A DNA stretch of 64,000 bases, from the NCBI GenBank assembly GCA_950072105.1, contig CATMOE010000004.1:1-64000 (forward strand), written 5' to 3'. Made by a program: the position numbers and the translations under genes. The stretch's first letter is position 1. Each line of letters begins with the position of its first letter. The notes under the pieces were generated by a model. It made no database searches. It was not told the DNA's origin and saw nothing but the letters and a program-made list of their open reading frames with translations. Source of the stretch: an uncultured Dehalococcoidia bacterium. Lineage in GTDB: Bacteria > Chloroflexota > Dehalococcoidia > Lucifugimonadales > UBA3495. Positions 1-8,798 of the stretch are shown here, piece after piece.

Positions 1-1624
1 ACCAGGAGTCCAAACCCACCACCACTCTCATGTTTTTCTCCCCTTAAAAGTGTCCCATTATCGCTGAACGCCTACAGTCATGCGCCTGTCTAGTAAGGCC
101 CAAATCAGAGGGCATGGCAAGGAACGTCAAGAAGAAGATGAAATAAAGGACTATGTAGATGAGCTGGATGCTTGCATTACTGACACCTGGTTTGTAGCAG
201 AGCGGGCAACTATATTTGACAGGCCCCATTTCGAAGCGCTTTTGACGCAAGGAATCTCTATGCGCCGCCAAGGTACCATTGACGGACTAATATTGGGATC
301 GGTTGACCGGTTGTCCCGAGACCCGTTCTATGGCGGAGCAGTATGCCGAGACGCGCTTAGGGCCGGACTCAGGCTATTCTTCGCCGAGGATAGGCTTGAT
401 GCTTTCCGAGAAGAGGATCAAGTCAATATAATCAGTCACCTAGTAGCGTCTCGGAAATACGCTCAAAGACTAAAAGCCCAGACAATGCCAGCTAGAAAGG
501 CCAGAGCTCGCGTTGGGAAGATACCGAATGGGCAAGTCCGTTGGCCATTTGATTACGATTCGTCCAGCGGTAAGGCTTCGCCGAACCCAGAGCGGGCTCG
601 TTGGGTCCAGAAATGGTATCAAGAGTTGAGAAACGGTGGATCGTTGGGGTCCATCAAGAAGACGATGGAGCAGGCAAAAATCCCCGCGCCGAAAGGTGGT
701 ACTACGTGGAGCCGTTCGACCATTAGGCGTATCTTATCTGACCCGGCAATAAAGGGAGACTTTACGTATGGATTCGAAAGAATGGAAGCCCGAGAGTATT
801 GGGAACCTTCCCGGAGGGTTCCTTCAGAGCCGGTGTTGATATATTCCGATAAGACGGACGCAATCTTAGAAGTCGAAGAATGGGACTATGTCCAGATGGT
901 CCTTGGAAGAAATAAAGAGTACTCTCGCCGAAACACACAGTATGACTATTCACCATTGAAGGGGCTAGTAATATGCCCGTGTGGGCGCAAGGTGGGCGCG
1001 TACACACACCGCAAGAGTGGGATCGGTTATTTTCGCTGCGGTACCTGCCGCAACGGGGATGTGAGCACCCAGAAACTTTGGGACTCTGTTCGTGATTGGT
1101 TAGAATCTTGCATCTCCTCATACAATGTATTTGCCGCTTTGGTTTCAAACGGAATGGAGGCACCGGACTCAATTGGGCAGATCGAAAAACAGGTAGCCGA
1201 GGATGTAGCGGAGATCGAGGTGATCAACGAGTCGATTACCCGGGCGATTCGAATGGGTGTACGTCTGAGTAGTTACGAGGACCGTTTTGAAAGCATCATC
1301 CAGGAGTTGGAAGTCCGTCTGGCTCAGGTACAAGCGAGTCTGGCAGTGCGGCAGAATGTGCTTAATGATCGGAAAGAAAGGGAGGCAGCGGTTCTCACCC
1401 TCGAATCGACGATTAACGCATTTCGGGCTCGGCTACCGTCCGTTACAGATTCCGAGTGGCGTCAGCTATTGCTTGATTTGGGGTTGACCGCAGTGATCAA
1501 ACCCAGGAGTAAAGCGGATATTATGGTCAGCGTTAGACTCTCGACACTAATAAATCAGCGGATCGAGCAACCTGTGGCCCAGACCGGGCAAATTCTTGGT
1601 GGGGTTATGTACCTTCATTCTTAA
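1..1624. mobile_element. Right end of an integrative element (prophage/IME/island) inserted in comM; continues left of the window
   Basis: Large serine recombinase ending at a truncated comM 5' fragment; sequence looks less GC-rich than the region beyond ~1625. Confidence 0.8.
80..1624 (+). CDS. Large serine recombinase/integrase (resolvase + recombinase + Zn-ribbon/coiled-coil)
   Basis: RLSSxxQ catalytic Ser motif, DRLSR, PFDY, WSRSTIRRILSDP, CPCG...CGTC Zn ribbon, coiled coil; true N-terminus may be frameshifted. Confidence 0.92.
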   Translation: MRLSSKAQIRGHGKERQEEDEIKDYVDELDACITDTWFVAERATIFDRPHFEALLTQGISMRRQGTIDGLILGSVDRLSRDPFYGGAVCRDALRAGLRLFFAEDRLDAFREEDQVNIISHLVASRKYAQRLKAQTMPARKARARVGKIPNGQVRWPFDYDSSSGKASPNPERARWVQKWYQELRNGGSLGSIKKTMEQAKIPAPKGGTTWSRSTIRRILSDPAIKGDFTYGFERMEAREYWEPSRRVPSEPVLIYSDKTDAILEVEEWDYVQMVLGRNKEYSRRNTQYDYSPLKGLVICPCGRKVGAYTHRKSGIGYFRCGTCRNGDVSTQKLWDSVRDWLESCISSYNVFAALVSNGMEAPDSIGQIEKQVAEDVAEIEVINESITRAIRMGVRLSSYEDRFESIIQELEVRLAQVQASLAVRQNVLNDRKEREAAVLTLESTINAFRARLPSVTDSEWRQLLLDLGLTAVIKPRSKADIMVSVRLSTLINQRIEQPVAQTGQILGGVMYLHS

Positions 1625-1715
1625 AGGCCGGCAATCCCGGCGATATGTCTACTTCAGCCTGTACGATGTAGCCGTCGAGGCCCAGCACCGCGCAGGTTTG
1701 GGCTGTTGCAAGCAT
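1605..1715 (-). pseudogene. comM: 5' fragment of comM/yifB (Mg-chelatase-like AAA+ ATPase) interrupted by the element
   Basis: Manual translation MLATAQTCAVLGLDGYIVQAEVDISPGLPAF|KNEGT*; first 31 aa match the YifB/ComM N-terminus (…G.D...V.VEVDISPGLP.F); GGAG RBS at 1724-1727. Confidence 0.85.
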
Positions 1716-1751
1716 GGGAGCAACTCCGGGCGAATTTTTGATTGCGCCTTC

Positions 1752-2525
1752 TTAAAGGTCCTTGCTCACTCGGTCGACATAATCTAGCCAGACACCGTTG
1801 TTAACCGGCGCCGGAGACCCGCCGAACAACTCGGCGAGATGGGGCAGTTCATGTACCGGAGGCCGGTTGTCGCTCTCGGCGATCAGATCCTCGGGTATTT
1901 GGGCATGGTTGGGACCCGCCGCGCAGTAGGCGTACCAGTTCATCCTCGCCTGTTCTTCCAACTGGAACATGTTCATCACAGACTGGATAAGGTCCTTGCC
2001 CACGGTGGCGGCCCCATGGCCCAGCAAGAGCACGGCGGGTGCGTCTCCCAAAGTTTCGGCTACTTCCGTGCCGTCCTCGTCGGTCAGGATGAGTTTGTTG
2101 TGGGGATACACCGGCAGAGGGTGGCGGACCAAGTCGATCCCCTCTGGGCACATCGGCACCAGGGTCTTCTGGAGAACGCTCATGACCACGGTATAGCGAG
2201 GGTGAACGTGGACTATAGACTGGACTTCGGGCCGGGCCCGGTAGATGCAGGAGTGCATCTTGATCTCGTAGCAGGGGGTCAGCCCGGCTGGTCCTTCGAC
2301 CTGGCTTCCGTTTAAGTCGCAGACGACCATTTCGTGGGGCAGCACCCGGGACAAGACGTCGATGGCGTAGCCCCGTCCTTTGACCGCGAACCTGCCCGAG
2401 TCGGAAGGGAGTCTCATGCTGGCGTGGCCCAAGGATGCGGTGACTCCGGTCGTCAAACCCATCTCGGAAAGTATCCTGTTGGCCACGGCTACCTGGTATT
2501 TGACGTCGTCCAACTCCGTCGGCAT
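1752..2525 (-). CDS. Class II aldolase/adducin family protein
   Basis: GHAS.R, E..MH..IY.ARP.V.SIVHVH, LLLGHG metal-binding motifs. Confidence 0.88.
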   Translation of the reverse strand: MPTELDDVKYQVAVANRILSEMGLTTGVTASLGHASMRLPSDSGRFAVKGRGYAIDVLSRVLPHEMVVCDLNGSQVEGPAGLTPCYEIKMHSCIYRARPEVQSIVHVHPRYTVVMSVLQKTLVPMCPEGIDLVRHPLPVYPHNKLILTDEDGTEVAETLGDAPAVLLLGHGAATVGKDLIQSVMNMFQLEEQARMNWYAYCAAGPNHAQIPEDLIAESDNRPPVHELPHLAELFGGSPAPVNNGVWLDYVDRVSKDL

Positions 2526-2606
2526 GGCATGCGCTCCTCAAGGGCTGCATCCGGAAATGGGGTGCCTTGATGCGAGGCTTACTATACGGGAAGTTGGACG
2601 GTTAAT

Positions 2607-3431
2607 CTATGGTGCGGCGACAGTAACAACGGTGAGGTCGTTGGCGGCGGAGATGGTGCCCTGGTAATGAAGTCTGGCATCGTTGATCAATGGCTGGGTG
2701 TCGGCGCTGAAGGGGGAGTCTATGTGGGTGATGACCAACTCGTCAACCCCGGCTTGGGCGGCTACCCTCGCGGCCTCTCCGGCGCTGGAATGGCCCCGGC
2801 TATTAGCCAGTTTTCGGTCTTTGTCCGTGCAGAAGGCTTCATGGATCAATAACCGGGCCCCCTGGGACGCTTCGGCAACGCTGGGGCTAAAACGGGTGTC
2901 ACCCGAGAACACCACGGACACTCCGTGGGACTCTATCTTCCAACCAACGGCCCCGGGTATGTGGTCCGCGGGGAAGGTGCTGGCCCGGGTGTTGGGCCCC
3001 AGGGTGATCCATTGCTCGTTATCGACTGCGGTCCAACGCAAAAAAGGGCTTCCGTCGGCGAAGTAGGCGCCTTCCTGGTCCACCGAAGGGACGTTCAGTT
3101 GAGTCGCCAGGCAAACCTTCCCCAGCCGGTCCAAGGCTTGCTCAGTGCTGAAGACTTGGAGTGGCGCGCTTTCCGAGTCTACCCGGCGGCGTTGACCCGA
3201 GATGAATGGGATTCCGCCCATGTGGTCGCCATGATGGTGGGTGAGCAACACCTGATCAAATTGGCTTGCCAGCATGCCCACGGCCGCGCCCTGACGCATG
3301 ACCGAGTTACCGGAGCTGGAATCCAGCAGCAGCCGGGTACCGTCGGCGCAGTCAACGACGATGGCCGTGTGGGCCCGGTGAATGCAGTTCCCGGCTCCCG
3401 TGCCGAGAAATGTGATCGTTATATCTGCCAA
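2607..3431 (-). CDS. RNase Z/BN-like MBL-fold hydrolase
   Basis: FLGTG, THHHGDH, FSGDT, LIHEA, GHS, THI motifs; 274 aa, no obvious exosite arm. Confidence 0.8.
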   Translation of the reverse strand: MADITITFLGTGAGNCIHRAHTAIVVDCADGTRLLLDSSSGNSVMRQGAAVGMLASQFDQVLLTHHHGDHMGGIPFISGQRRRVDSESAPLQVFSTEQALDRLGKVCLATQLNVPSVDQEGAYFADGSPFLRWTAVDNEQWITLGPNTRASTFPADHIPGAVGWKIESHGVSVVFSGDTRFSPSVAEASQGARLLIHEAFCTDKDRKLANSRGHSSAGEAARVAAQAGVDELVITHIDSPFSADTQPLINDARLHYQGTISAANDLTVVTVAAP

Positions 3432-3453
3432 TGCTGATCTCCCAAGGTAATAC

Positions 3454-4098
3454 TTAAGGCTGGGACTCCTGCCATTCGGCCATCCTGAGCTCTAGTTTGT
3501 GTTGGCGCAGAGCCATGGTCAGGTCGCCACGGGTGCGCTCCAATACTCCCCGCATCATGTCGGTGCTGTGGCGGAGGCCAGCGGTAACGCCCTCGGGGAA
3601 GTCCACGGTTACCAACAGGCTGTAAATCTCGTCCATCACGTCCATCAATTCTTGGCAACGGTCGAAGGAGTCTCGACGCAGAGAGTCCAGGATATAACGC
3701 CGCAACTCTCCGATGACTTCAGCTAGACCGTTGAGGTAGGCTGGGGGGTCGATGCCCAGGTCTTCCGGTTGGGGGATAGCCCCGCCGGATATCACGGCGT
3801 AGGTGACGTTGGCCTCGGCGAACTCCTTGCGGGCGTCGGACATGAAGGGTGCGAAGTAGATCTCCGGGGTGTCTTGACGGAACGTCTCGGCGTCTTCAAG
3901 CCGCGCCCTACCTTGGGCGATGAGCTTGTCAGCCTCTTCCAAATGTCCCCGATGCACGGCCCGGATAGCGTTGGCCGAGAATCGAATGACCTCCCGGGAT
4001 ATTGGCAGAGCCTGTTCTCGGGAACGATTCCGAACCGTTAGGCGCTCAATGGCCTTGGAGACGACATCCGCCAAGGCCGGCTCATATGACGAAGGCAT
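3454..4098 (-). CDS. Translin/TRAX family protein
   Basis: RE...SREVIR.S..AI..VH, KEFAEA, YLNGLAEVIGELRR motifs. Confidence 0.82.
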   Translation of the reverse strand: MPSSYEPALADVVSKAIERLTVRNRSREQALPISREVIRFSANAIRAVHRGHLEEADKLIAQGRARLEDAETFRQDTPEIYFAPFMSDARKEFAEANVTYAVISGGAIPQPEDLGIDPPAYLNGLAEVIGELRRYILDSLRRDSFDRCQELMDVMDEIYSLLVTVDFPEGVTAGLRHSTDMMRGVLERTRGDLTMALRQHKLELRMAEWQESQP

Positions 4099-5084
4099 TA
4101 AACCCTACCTCCGGCCAGCCTGATCGCTTCTACCATGGCGCTGGCGGCCGCTTCAGGTTCGGCAGCCGACGCCACGGCAGCGGTCACGCAGATCGCGTCG
4201 GCTCCGGCTTCCACCACCGGAGCCACGTTGTCGATGTTGATCCCTCCGATGGCAACCAACGGCACTTTGGCCAGTTCCCGGGCGCGGCGCAACGGCTCAA
4301 TACCCTGCGGGGGCCGGCCCACTCCTTTGGTGGTAGTTTGATAGATGGCGCCGAAGGCCACGTGATCGGCGCCCATCTCCTGCGACTCAACCAGCTGGTC
4401 AAACTCCCGATTTGACCGCCCCAACACTTGGTGCGGAGCCAACACTTTGCGTACCTGGTCTACCGGCATATCGGTTTGGCCCACGTGAACTCCCGCCGAA
4501 CCGATGGTGGCGCCCAGATCCACGTGGTCGTTAACGATCAACATCACGTTGTTTTCCTGGCACAACTGCTGCAACGGCGTGGCCAGGGATAAAATCTCTC
4601 CCTTGTCCCGGAGCTTGTCCCGGAGTTGAAGCATCGCCGCACCGCCCCGGACCGCCGCTATGGCTATGTCCATGGGATCTCTACCGCCGGTCACCTGGGG
4701 GTCGATGATCACGTACAATCCCCGGATCTTGTTCGCCTGCGCCTGGCGAAGGGCGGCGCCCAGACCGGCGGTTAGGGCCGTTAGAGTTTCTGACAGGGCC
4801 TGGTCCATCTCGGAGTTTACCGGTCCTCCGGTCCCCTGTCCCGTTAAGACCGTTAGCAACTCCCGTGACGTCGTGATCAGCGTCAGCGCTTCGGGGAGGC
4901 CCAATTCGGACGTTCCTACAGACGGTGCGGCGGACAAGTGGGACATCAGCACCAGCACCAAGTTACGCAAACGGTGCAGAGCGTCGGAGGCGGCGGGCGT
5001 GGTCGGACACTGCTCGGCGACGGTGTACAAGCAATGCACCATGGAGTTGTAACAGTTTTCCGGCAGGGTGTTTGAGGTTGTCAT
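4098..5084 (-). CDS. thiE: Thiamine-phosphate synthase with N-terminal extension
   Basis: GLYVI, QLRDK, IVND, GVHVGQ.D, T.TK, VAIGGI. Confidence 0.9.
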   Translation of the reverse strand: MTTSNTLPENCYNSMVHCLYTVAEQCPTTPAASDALHRLRNLVLVLMSHLSAAPSVGTSELGLPEALTLITTSRELLTVLTGQGTGGPVNSEMDQALSETLTALTAGLGAALRQAQANKIRGLYVIIDPQVTGGRDPMDIAIAAVRGGAAMLQLRDKLRDKGEILSLATPLQQLCQENNVMLIVNDHVDLGATIGSAGVHVGQTDMPVDQVRKVLAPHQVLGRSNREFDQLVESQEMGADHVAFGAIYQTTTKGVGRPPQGIEPLRRARELAKVPLVAIGGINIDNVAPVVEAGADAICVTAAVASAAEPEAAASAMVEAIRLAGGRV

Positions 5085-5422
5085 ATATCTATCCCTTGAG
5101 GAAGGTGGCCATCACGGGCAGCGTCGATGGATTCCCGGACCGGCTTGGGAATTTCCACACCGTACCGGGAGAAGCTCTCCTCCACGTTGCGTCCGATGTT
5201 GCGGGGGTCGCGGTAGTAGTCCATCCCGGCTGCAGACTGTCCTGACGGAGAGGTTTGATGCACGGAAGCGACTGTCTTCCCCAAAGCAAAAGAGGACATT
5301 CGGCGTTGCATCTCATTGCTTTGACAGTGCTGGCAGGCGGGCTCCAGGTCAACGCCGATGGACCTGACAAAAAATGAGGAAACTCCGCCGCAAGACTGAC
5401 ATCGGTATTCGTAGATCGGCAT
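5081..5422 (-). CDS. FmdB-family zinc-ribbon protein
   Basis: MPIYEYRCxxC...CxxC. Confidence 0.85.
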   Translation of the reverse strand: MPIYEYRCQSCGGVSSFFVRSIGVDLEPACQHCQSNEMQRRMSSFALGKTVASVHQTSPSGQSAAGMDYYRDPRNIGRNVEESFSRYGVEIPKPVRESIDAARDGHLPQGIDI

Positions 5423-5559
5423 CGTCTGGTTTGGTTTCCCCGCCTTGGATTTAATGAGAACCGGTTGATCTGAAATTCCAGGTATTAGCCGTCTGAAGGG
5501 CGAATCAACGGACCATGGATTCCCAAGTCGTTATCCAACTAGATCACGAGGGAATGCGG

Positions 5560-5877
5560 CTAGGGATCAGTGGTCCATTCCTTACGCATCTGATTGAAAT
5601 CCGAGGTGACTTGGCCGCCCATCTCGCGTTTGATCCGGCCCATATAGTTGTCAATGCTTTTAGGACTGTCTTCGTCCACGTCTCGCGAGGTCTCTCCGCT
5701 GGGAACCCAGTTCAAGCTATCGCCCCACGAGGCTCGAAACGTAAATCCCGAAATCAGTTTGCCCAGATTTTCGCTGCCGCAACCGGAGCATACCGGGTCG
5801 GCCTTCGTGGACCAGGAATATGACAGAACCGAGGTTACGCCCTGGCAATCTTGGCATCGGTAGTCGTGGATCGGCAT
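5560..5877 (-). CDS. FmdB-family zinc-ribbon protein
   Basis: MPIHDYRCxxC...CxxCGS; start moved to the internal ATG at 5877. Confidence 0.82.
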   Translation of the reverse strand: MPIHDYRCQDCQGVTSVLSYSWSTKADPVCSGCGSENLGKLISGFTFRASWGDSLNWVPSGETSRDVDEDSPKSIDNYMGRIKREMGGQVTSDFNQMRKEWTTDP

Positions 5878-6026
5878 GAAGTTTGTCCTACGCTGAATCT
5901 CAAGAGCATTGTAGCATGGGCGGACATTGCCTTGAAGAGTGTTCCCAGGCTGAAGGCCTACCCGGCCGGGTGTATAATGCAGCCGACCGGGCCCACACCA
6001 TTCCACACGACTGCCGAGGTGCCGCC

Positions 6027-8798
6027 ATGCCCACCGCCGAGGGCCAAACCCTGCCCATGTTCGCTAACCCAGGCGCCCCTCTCTTGATGTTGATGGATGG
6101 CCATGCCATGGTCCATCGTTCTTTTCATGCCATATCGGCACAGGGACATCTCACTGTATCGGCCACCGGCGAAGACACCACCGCCGTAGTTGGATTCGCC
6201 AACACATTTCTCCGGGCCCTGCAAGACTGGAAGCCGACATATTGCGCCATCGCCTTTGATACTTCGGCCCCCACGTTCAGGCATATACAATTTGAACAAT
6301 ACAAGGCGCAAAGGGCGTCGATGCCGCCGGAACTGAGGCCCCAGTTCGATAGGGTCAAGCAGTTGATGGCTGGGTTTGGCGTTCCCATCTTCGAATGCGA
6401 AGGCTACGAAGCTGATGACATTATCGGCACCCTTTCCCGGCAGGCTGAAGAGCAGGGTATCGATACCATCATACTGACGGGAGACCGGGACACCTTCCAA
6501 TTGATTACACCTGGAGTCCGGGTGGACTTGTCCTACAGCATTCAGAATCGCAAGGTGTATGACGAAGTGGAACTGGCGGCCCGCTACTCGGGACTCACCG
6601 CCGCCCAGCAGCCGGACTTCAAGGCTCTCTTGGGAGATACTTCAGACAATATTCCCGGCGTGCCCAAAGTTGGCGAGAAGCGGGCAATCGGTCTGCTTAC
6701 CGAGTTCGGCGACCTTGAAGGCGTGTTCGCCAACCTGGAACACGTAAAACCACCCAGCGTGAAGCTTTCCTTGGAGGAGAATCGGGAACGGGCTTTCGAG
6801 AACCGCATACTGATGACCATCGACCGGAACACGCCGGTGGAACTGGACCCGGGAGCCTCCAGATTTGGTGTTTATGACCGAACCTCAGTGGTGGACCTGC
6901 TGACCGAGTTGGAGATGTTCAACGTCATCCAACGACTGCCTCCTTCGGTGGCCGGTGGCTCTACGGCACCCGACGCAGTCACCGCCACTTCGCCGAGAGA
7001 GCCCAGCGGCGATTATCAAGCCGTCCAAACCGAAGAGCAACTGGAAGCCTTGATCGCCGTTCTTGAAGAGTCTGGGAGCTTCGCCTTCGACACCGAAACC
7101 ACCGCACTGGACCCCATGCGGGCAGACTTGGTTGGCCTCAGCTTTTCCGTGTCTCCCGGCCGTGCCTGGTATGTCCCCGTCGGGCATAAAGAAGGCACTC
7201 AGCTTCCCCTGGAATTTGTCCTCGCCCGCTTGAGGCCGTTGATGGAGTCGACCGAACTGGCCAAATGCGCTCACAACGCCAACTACGATGTGATGGTGCT
7301 GGCCAATCACGGCATCAATTGCCAGAACGTAGATTTCGATACGATGATTGCCGCCCACCTATTGAGCAAGGGCGCCTTGGGGCTGAAGAACCTGTCGTTA
7401 AACGTACTAGGCCACGAAATGACCCCCATATCCGACCTGATCGGCACGGGCCGCAAGCAGATCACTTTTGATCAGGTGGACATTGCGGATGCCGTGGACT
7501 ACGCCGCCGCCGACGCCGACATGACCGGCCGGCTTAGGGAAAATATGGAAGGCCAAGTAGCCGCACAAGGTTTGACCGGCTTGATGGCCGATATGGAGAT
7601 GCCCTTGGTGCCGGTCCTGGTTACGATGCAGCGGCACGGCATCAAATTGGACGCCGGCGCACTTCACGAGATGTCCAGGGACTTGACCGAAAATATGTCG
7701 AAAGTGGAGGTGGACCTGTACGAGTCCATCGGCCATACGGTGAACATCAACTCGCCCCAGCAACTCAGCGGCCTACTGTTCAACGAGCTGGGATTGCCGC
7801 GCACCAAACGCACCAAAACCGGCTACTCCACCGATGCTAACTCCTTGGAAGGCCTCAAGGGCCTGCATCCAGTGGTTGACAATATCCTGGAATACCGCCA
7901 GATCTCCAAGCTCAAATCCACCTACGTTGATGCCCTGCCCGACATGGTCAACCCAACAACCGGGCGGATCCACACCAGCTATAACCAAACGGGATCGGCC
8001 ACCGGACGCATGTCCAGCAGCGACCCCAACCTGCAAAACATACCCATCCGAACCGATATGGGACGCCAGGTGCGCAAAGCCTTCGTGGCGGACAACTCAC
8101 CGGCGTGGCTGCTGTTCTCCGCCGACTACTCCCAGATCGAACTGCGAGTGCTGGCCCATCTGTCTCAAGACCCGGGCCTCTTGGACGCCTTCCGCCGCGG
8201 CGAGGACATTCATTCGTCCACGGCTTCGTTGATGTTCGACGTGTCCATGAACGACGTGGATTCGGACATGCGCCGCATCGCCAAGGTCCTCAACTTCGGC
8301 GTCATTTACGGACTATCCGCTCACGGCATCGCCCAGCAGACCGGGTTCAGCCGCGAGGAGGGAACCAAGTTCATCGAGTCATATTTCAACAAATACCCCG
8401 GAATCAGCGAGTACATCGAAAGCGTTAAGATCAAGACGAGGGAGACCCAGTTCGTGGAGACCGTGATGGGCCGCCGCCGGTACTTGCCCGACATCAACTC
8501 ATCCAACTTCAACGTGCGGGGGGGAGCGGAACGCATGGCGGTGAATATGCCGATCCAGGGCACCGCCGCCGACATCATGAAACTAGCCATGATACGGGTT
8601 CACCACCGCCTGGAAGAGGATGACCTGCGTTCCAAGATGCTGCTGCAAGTTCACGACGAGTTGGTCTTCGAGGTCCCACAAGAGGAACTGGAGGCTATCA
8701 AAGAGGTGGTATTCGACGAGATGCCCGCCGCGCTGGATCTGGACGTGAGCCTGAAAGTGGACATAAAGTGGGGCAATACCTGGGGCGACATGGAGTAG
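6027..8798 (+). CDS. polA: DNA polymerase I
   Basis: 5'-3' exo (DG, EADD, GDxSDN), 3'-5' exo DTETT, DYSQIELR, K.LNFG.IYG, VHDE; GAGGT RBS before ATG 6027. Confidence 0.98.
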   Translation: MPTAEGQTLPMFANPGAPLLMLMDGHAMVHRSFHAISAQGHLTVSATGEDTTAVVGFANTFLRALQDWKPTYCAIAFDTSAPTFRHIQFEQYKAQRASMPPELRPQFDRVKQLMAGFGVPIFECEGYEADDIIGTLSRQAEEQGIDTIILTGDRDTFQLITPGVRVDLSYSIQNRKVYDEVELAARYSGLTAAQQPDFKALLGDTSDNIPGVPKVGEKRAIGLLTEFGDLEGVFANLEHVKPPSVKLSLEENRERAFENRILMTIDRNTPVELDPGASRFGVYDRTSVVDLLTELEMFNVIQRLPPSVAGGSTAPDAVTATSPREPSGDYQAVQTEEQLEALIAVLEESGSFAFDTETTALDPMRADLVGLSFSVSPGRAWYVPVGHKEGTQLPLEFVLARLRPLMESTELAKCAHNANYDVMVLANHGINCQNVDFDTMIAAHLLSKGALGLKNLSLNVLGHEMTPISDLIGTGRKQITFDQVDIADAVDYAAADADMTGRLRENMEGQVAAQGLTGLMADMEMPLVPVLVTMQRHGIKLDAGALHEMSRDLTENMSKVEVDLYESIGHTVNINSPQQLSGLLFNELGLPRTKRTKTGYSTDANSLEGLKGLHPVVDNILEYRQISKLKSTYVDALPDMVNPTTGRIHTSYNQTGSATGRMSSSDPNLQNIPIRTDMGRQVRKAFVADNSPAWLLFSADYSQIELRVLAHLSQDPGLLDAFRRGEDIHSSTASLMFDVSMNDVDSDMRRIAKVLNFGVIYGLSAHGIAQQTGFSREEGTKFIESYFNKYPGISEYIESVKIKTRETQFVETVMGRRRYLPDINSSNFNVRGGAERMAVNMPIQGTAADIMKLAMIRVHHRLEEDDLRSKMLLQVHDELVFEVPQEELEAIKEVVFDEMPAALDLDVSLKVDIKWGNTWGDME

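Follow-up and report, generated by a model that had tools for sequence, protein, structure and literature searches.

The start of the 64,000-nt stretch of DNA analysed here (the window, which is the start of contig C4 in the 164-contig assembly G000) raises the question of whether a mobile element has split the competence gene comM there, and whether the gene could still be restored. A preliminary description made from the letters alone had proposed both. We conclude that the window very probably contains the junction, on the comM side, of an element with a serine integrase that entered comM at codon 32, that an insertion sequence (IS) has taken codons 1–8 of the integrase gene, and that the element is probably stuck in place, with comM likely off.

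Results

The comM stub and its host flank

The short reading frame opposite the recombinase gene (36 aa, MLATAQTCAVLGLDGYIVQAEVDISPGLPAF-KNEGT*; Table 1) had been taken for a hidden comM (yifB) N-terminus, and this was borne out by the uninterrupted comM start of the same-genus genome G002 (L030), which is identical at 31 of 31 residues and goes on NIVGLPD. By itself the stub has no Pfam match and matches the TIGR00368 (YifB) profile weakly (E 0.069), so its expected alignment to YifB/ComM holds by tblastn, with matches to the comM N-terminus in most of 32 loci (E 1e-9 to 1e-17), and only weakly by profile. The GGAG ribosome-binding site ascribed to the stub is present, 8 nt before the comM ATG. 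An aldolase gene lies directly upstream of comM in the window and likewise in G002, and DNA likeness between the two runs from the aldolase gene through comM codon 31 and is broken at the junction. The change in base composition noted at the end of the recombinase gene is also real, with 51.0% GC in the integrase vs 58.9% at 1625–8000.

Table 1. Features at the left end of the window
Feature	Position	Strand	Basis or remark
Left end of ~1.58-kb IS3-type insertion sequence	1..76	-	Repeat copies; whole IS in L046
Large serine integrase gene without codons 1-8	77..1624	+	Pfam; intact 523-aa P0001
Element-side att arm	1601..1620	-	Within last integrase codons; symmetry about core
comM stub ORF	1605..1715	-	comM codons 1-31 (1715-1623) plus element-coded KNEGT*
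Crossover core AA (TT on +)	1621..1622	-	First two bases of comM Asn32
Integrase stop codon TAA	1622..1624	+	One core base plus two comM bases (Phe31)
comM ribosome-binding site GGAG	1724..1727	-	Sequence; same bases in G002
Host class II aldolase gene	1752..2525	-	Pfam Aldolase_II E 1e-34; synteny

A serine integrase cut by an insertion sequence

The recombinase frame that starts at 80 (514 aa to 1624, plus strand) does belong to a large serine integrase, but it is not the whole gene, codons 1–8 having been lost. It matches Pfam Recombinase (PF07508, E 5e-15), its top Foldseek matches are serine integrases (E 5e-20), and by profile it matches the SPbeta integrase YokA (E 3e-20); the Resolvase (E 2e-4) and zinc ribbon (PF13408, E 0.003) matches fell below the cut-off. 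In an alignment of 18 integrase sequences, four Cys residues are invariant, as are R11 and S13 of the R-x-S motif. The usual residue two positions before this motif in serine integrases is Tyr; in the clade aligned here it is V, I or L. The predicted model has long helices (a coiled coil) at residues 374–458 and is of low confidence at the C-terminus of the integrated form (496–523). The intact protein is 523 aa long (P0001, from a cluster of 241 sequences), and the intact 5′ end of the gene is present in L033 and L036, the latter an intact allele of the same species that is 99.96% identical. A T at window position 329 causes the change D93Y beside the conserved DRLSRD motif; because this position is G in all four runs examined and the Asp form occurs in 8 of 8 compared cluster members, the T seems to be a consensus error.

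Positions 1–76 replace integrase codons 1–8 and everything upstream, the contig being broken by an IS that sits between codons 8 and 9 (codon 9 is 77–79). The left end of this IS occurs in 12 copies in G000, each within 250 nt of a contig end. The whole IS is found in L046 (111–1689) at the same insertion point, with orfA (HTH_Tnp_1), orfB (rve) and TG...CA inverted ends, a domain pattern and end structure that we take to indicate the IS3 family. Several multi-copy IS ends and other repeats terminate many of the 164 contigs of G000, and tandem tRNA-like repeats occur in C107 and C15.

Such a repeat could have produced the join at the contig start as an assembly chimera, with the integrase whole in the cell. 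The IS is indeed multi-copy and ends many contigs, and at the other IS flank in L046 there is neither a match to the integrase 5′ end nor a target duplication. Against this, the IS-integrase join falls at the same base in L046 and in contigs of the independent runs X12 (contig 50–2600) and X13 (contig 50–1650), and P0050 is a 514-aa cluster member that starts at Met10. Because of this repeated join we regard the cut integrase as a real recurring allele and a chimera as very improbable. Run X7 breaks at 77, and intact and cut alleles may co-occur there. Comparison of 12 left with 15 right IS flanks in G000 for the 3–4 bp target duplication of the IS3 family gave only 2 short matches, both to one contig; C79, which shares 3 bases, was rejected as the partner contig, its flank not being the integrase 5′ end. 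None of the 15 right-end flanks in G000 matches integrase codons 1–8 (0/15), nor were the 430 bp upstream of the intact integrase gene found in G000, and an IS-adjacent deletion of the upstream DNA is likely.

The only integrase start left is Met10, at position 80, which keeps R11 and the catalytic S13; no SD-like motif precedes it in the window. In the predicted model strand 1 comprises residues 4–12, so starting at Met10 drops 6 of its 9 residues, and loss of most of this first catalytic strand would be expected to inactivate the integrase. The retained R11 and S13 count against an inactive Met10 protein, and the intact alleles of the same species (L036) and the X7 break at 77 count against immobility. 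The element might thus still be excisable, through a partly active Met10 protein or an incoming intact integrase acting in trans on the att arms. The arm and core in the window are intact, intact near-identical integrases occur in the same waters (the 241-sequence cluster and L036), and rescue in trans is described for archaeal split integrases (PMC8371274). However, besides the lack of an SD-like motif before Met10 and the 6 of 9 strand-1 residues predicted to be gone, the far att site of this copy is absent from the G000 assembly, and X12 has the cut allele only and no attP junction. We therefore consider continued excision unlikely.

The crossover core and its arms

To place the crossover, 13 intact comM starts were aligned with eight comM-to-element junctions (the window, L033, L036, L034, L035, L037, L044 and L093, of which the first three are almost identical, with each duplicate among the genome handles counted once) and two element-to-comM junctions (G001, L095; G508, L085). 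The only bases common to all aligned junctions and intact comM are AA, at 1622–1621 of the window, and this core is present in 12 of the 13 intact genes. The crossover had been placed near 1620–1625 (TTAAA); that range was right, and the core is now narrowed to the TT at 1621–1622 of the plus strand. Runs X13 and X15 have contig breaks at 1621/1650, and X15 has a loose end at 1621.

The element-side sequences are symmetric about this core. The motif TGTACCT (1608–1614), 6 nt off the core, is mirrored in the far arm of G001, and the G001 element arms are symmetric at 12 of 20 positions at shift 0, vs 2–8 of 20 at eight other shifts. The far arm of G508 matches the L044 arm at 15 of 20 positions. 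The crossover thus consists of a 2-bp core between unlike attB and symmetric attP arms, as befits a large serine integrase, and the junction, with its core set by eight plus two junctions, is an att site as had been supposed. The last 17 residues of P0016 equal a +1-frame translation of comM that begins at the core, and this protein tail is consistent with use of the codon-32 site in reverse orientation after a flip of the core. Such reverse use would agree with the rule reported for Bxb1.

The integrase reading frame extends over the core, and its stop codon is completed by comM bases. The stop is TGA in L034, L035, L037 and L044, and 18 of the best 20 homologues end at the same register as the window integrase. 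Read on the integrase strand, both far arms (2/2) instead give 18 codons and a stop (SSQVHKTEFIVNIAEVNY and STLEHNHSIEVTLAEIIV), so that a free circle would be predicted to code an integrase 18 residues longer. Beyond the att repeat the two far arms match at 16 of 36 bases vs 14 of 60 further out, and the matches by codon position are 5, 6 and 3 of 11; the ungapped BLOSUM score of the tail is 18 vs 0 and 10 in the other frames (n = 2 arms). With only two arms, these figures suggest that the free form has a conserved tail, although a promoter could also explain the conservation. None of the C-termini of P0001–P0201 carries the 18-codon tail. Both far arms also place an ATG or TTG in frame before comM Asn32, without a clear SD motif.

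The remainder of comM and empty sites

The rest of comM had been predicted beyond the far end of the element. This is the case in the sister genome G001, where the remainder, on another contig and close to its end, begins at Asn32 with a matching att arm, and where the integrase DNA is 99.74% identical to the window; in G000 no remainder was found by profile search or tblastn. Because guaB, the neighbour of the remainder in G001, is absent from G000 as well, the remainder may equally well have been deleted or have fallen into an assembly gap, and the missing guaB suggests a stretch between IS copies that failed to assemble. The remainder in G508 is an open frame (28–507), while that of G001 has a 1-base deletion and comM of G002 a 2-base deletion, each of which could be an assembly error.

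It had also been held that precise excision would restore comM, and this stands: Phe31 and Asn32 are joined in frame at the AA core, and RNA run X15 has the corresponding empty-site junction, its loose end at 1621 agreeing at 30 of 30 letters with G001 comM from codon 32. A contig with the occupied junction is also present in X15. The X15 host contig carries G001-type bases, not those of G000. Run X13 is broken at core base 1621, with a depth of 22 to 27, and X12 and X7 are unbroken there. The search for the two products of excision yielded the empty site in X15 and no circle: no attP junction (integrase to far arm) was among the loose ends listed, all but 27 of the total, for the four runs X7, X12, X13 and X15, which were examined as contigs, a form that drops rare variants and in which circles could be missed. 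Runs X21–X24, with almost no query words present, were left out. The empty sites show polymorphism, not excision.

These findings bear on the competence switch suggested for this genome, in which the element would excise on a signal and restore full comM, as in the case of skin and sigK. Excision at the AA core would restore the frame, the empty junction in X15 (30/30 bases) stands beside an occupied one with the X13 break at the same base, dprA is intact and comEC present in G000, and the G508 remainder is open. However, the integrase of G000 is cut, and its comEC (G000:C3:75733-76563, minus strand) is interrupted in frame by a TGA (477 + 357 aa) at a codon that reads GGG in G001 and G002, which could be a nonsense change or a consensus error. 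The deletions in the G001 remainder and in G002 comM, the G001-type host contig of X15 and the absence of an attP junction from the contigs of the four runs also argue against a switch, and lineages in which the element was never present account for the empty sites, since only 3 of 202 family genomes have the integrase. Hits at three or more other comM sites in the order, moreover, fit parasitism better than a domesticated switch. The proposal is thus not supported for this genome, and a regulated switch is quite improbable.

Distribution of the element

In the sample of 401 genomes of the order, the integrase was found in two, G000 and one distant match. The comM N-terminus was found in 178 of the 202 family genomes, and all 150 of the 150 matches listed span the insertion site. 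Seven genomes with partial comM matches were examined closely, together with two that had no match and G075. Codon-32 junctions are present in G000, G001, G010, G015 and G508; G560 and G499 look like frameshifts and were discarded, as was G513, in which another comM site is hit. The far-junction motif occurs in 5 of the 401 order genomes, in none of them at comM, so no third far junction was obtained.

The gene 3′ end is reached in 9 of 16 integrase loci, and 6 of these 9 adjoin a comM stub at the same codon, the AA core of codon 32 being used by integrases 46–100% alike. The remaining three complete loci (L038–L040) lie at a non-comM site with an attB-like arm; they were considered as excised attP forms and rejected, since their arm keeps the stop and is unlike the far arms. 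At this non-comM site (L038 2267–2410, L039 2266–2321, L040 10971–11110) the integrases are ~70% alike, L038 and L040 share ~140 bp at 75%, and an Rfam search of the three gave no match.

Between G000 and G001 the integrase is 99.74% identical, the stub 97.9%, the aldolase gene 96.5% and other genes 89.7–94.6%. Because the integrase (99.7%) is so much closer than the host genes (90–97%), we infer that the element spread recently and horizontally between the two species. The G015 locus (L093, 1498–1620) keeps the comM stub and att arm with host-like genes following and no integrase, and is a scar of the same element. There was no sign of a phage nature: 28 viral candidate contigs contained neither integrase relatives nor the far-junction motif.

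Discussion

Parasitic knockout of comM followed by decay is the simplest reading of this locus, because the integrase is cut and no circle was seen. Given the known chemistry of serine integrases, an attP x attB exchange at the AA core of Asn32 would have split comM, leaving an integrase gene that crosses the core and has a stop made with comM bases. The element would have spread recently between two species by horizontal transfer. An IS at codon 9 removed most of the first catalytic strand, presumably inactivating the integrase, and probably deleted upstream DNA too. According to the literature, ComM helps transformation to cure such elements, so the element would gain by its knockout. The copy present in the window has probably reached a dead end.

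Insertion into comM by a serine integrase is already a well-known kind of event, and what differs here is the host and the integrase clade; among the papers listed by a literature search, none dealt with this element or with comM islands of the marine group concerned. comM is the best-known serine integrase target: of predicted site-specific serine integrases, 12.4% have the magnesium chelatase-like gene (comM/yifB) as their target (PMC10083194). Further cases are Wolbachia sr1WO (PMC9203015) and alphaproteobacterial pipolins (PMC11551731). In those elements too, the serine integrase inserts at a conserved site of the gene, the core is 2 bp long and a gene half remains at either end, whereas the present host is a marine Chloroflexota and the integrase clade has V, I or L two residues before R-x-S. 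The AbaR islands in Acinetobacter comM share the target and the proposed benefit of escape from curing by transformation, but they are Tn7-like transposons with a measured transformation effect (PMC11441513), unlike the present serine-integrase element, which is known from sequence. Two reports view comM insertions as shielding elements from curing (PMC11441513, PMC12378983), and knockout followed by decay agrees with this view.

An attP inside the integrase 3′ end is likewise already published. In Bacillus phage Goe14 (bioRxiv 10.1101/2021.11.22.469490) attP also lies in the integrase 3′ coding region, the protein is shortened and a host gene is split, but the target is spoVK and 131 residues are lost, vs a predicted 18 here. 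In the serine recombinase DsiB of Dehalococcoides (PMC3146451), from the same phylum, the gene 3′ end overlaps attL and the stop comes from outside the island; its target is ssrA, which has a direct repeat and stays intact, whereas here comM is split with the stop at the core. The DsiB authors suggest that the protein is perhaps fully functional only on the circle (PMC3146451). Whether a circle-only tail controls direction is a question that the accounts of Goe14 and DsiB raise and that the present element shares.

For copies with an intact integrase, the arrangement allows a more speculative reading, which we put forward tentatively and regard as doubtful: the attP of this clade might be a built-in three-way switch of tail clipping, N-truncated ComM and core flip, through which such copies would toggle comM. 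In this reading the conserved tail of 18 residues would be removed by integration, so that the circle could conceivably code a version that integrates and the chromosome one that excises or stays idle; the far-arm ATG or TTG may let ComM lacking 31 residues still be made; and the flipped 2-bp core might, at a stretch, let relatives use the same site in reverse. If true, intact-integrase copies would toggle comM in marine Chloroflexota populations that hold both occupied and empty sites. The 2020 work of Mageeney on regulated gene integrity is said to list yifB as a candidate. Parasitic knockout, the reading we prefer for the window, brings marine Chloroflexota into the known conflict of mobile elements with comM, with at least four comM sites hit, and the locus provides attB and attP, mapped exactly, for an uncharacterised integrase of which intact natural alleles exist.

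Besides codon 32, insertions hit comM near codons 28, 346 and 354, that is, at least three further sites in the same order. In L022, L023 and L024 (G031, G009 and G008) comM is split near codon 354, at the MNPCP motif, by large serine recombinases of another family, whose gene also runs toward the comM junction. In L026, L027 and L028 (G027, G005 and G016) comM is split near codon 346, with the halves 62–93 kb apart on one contig. A recombinase-like ORF in L094 (G513, 1498–2602) splits comM near codon 28 and reads into antisense comM. In G001 and G002 the comM 3′ half also occurs as additional partial copies, downstream of the gene at a distance of a few kb (L095 7716–7874; L097 1226–1575).
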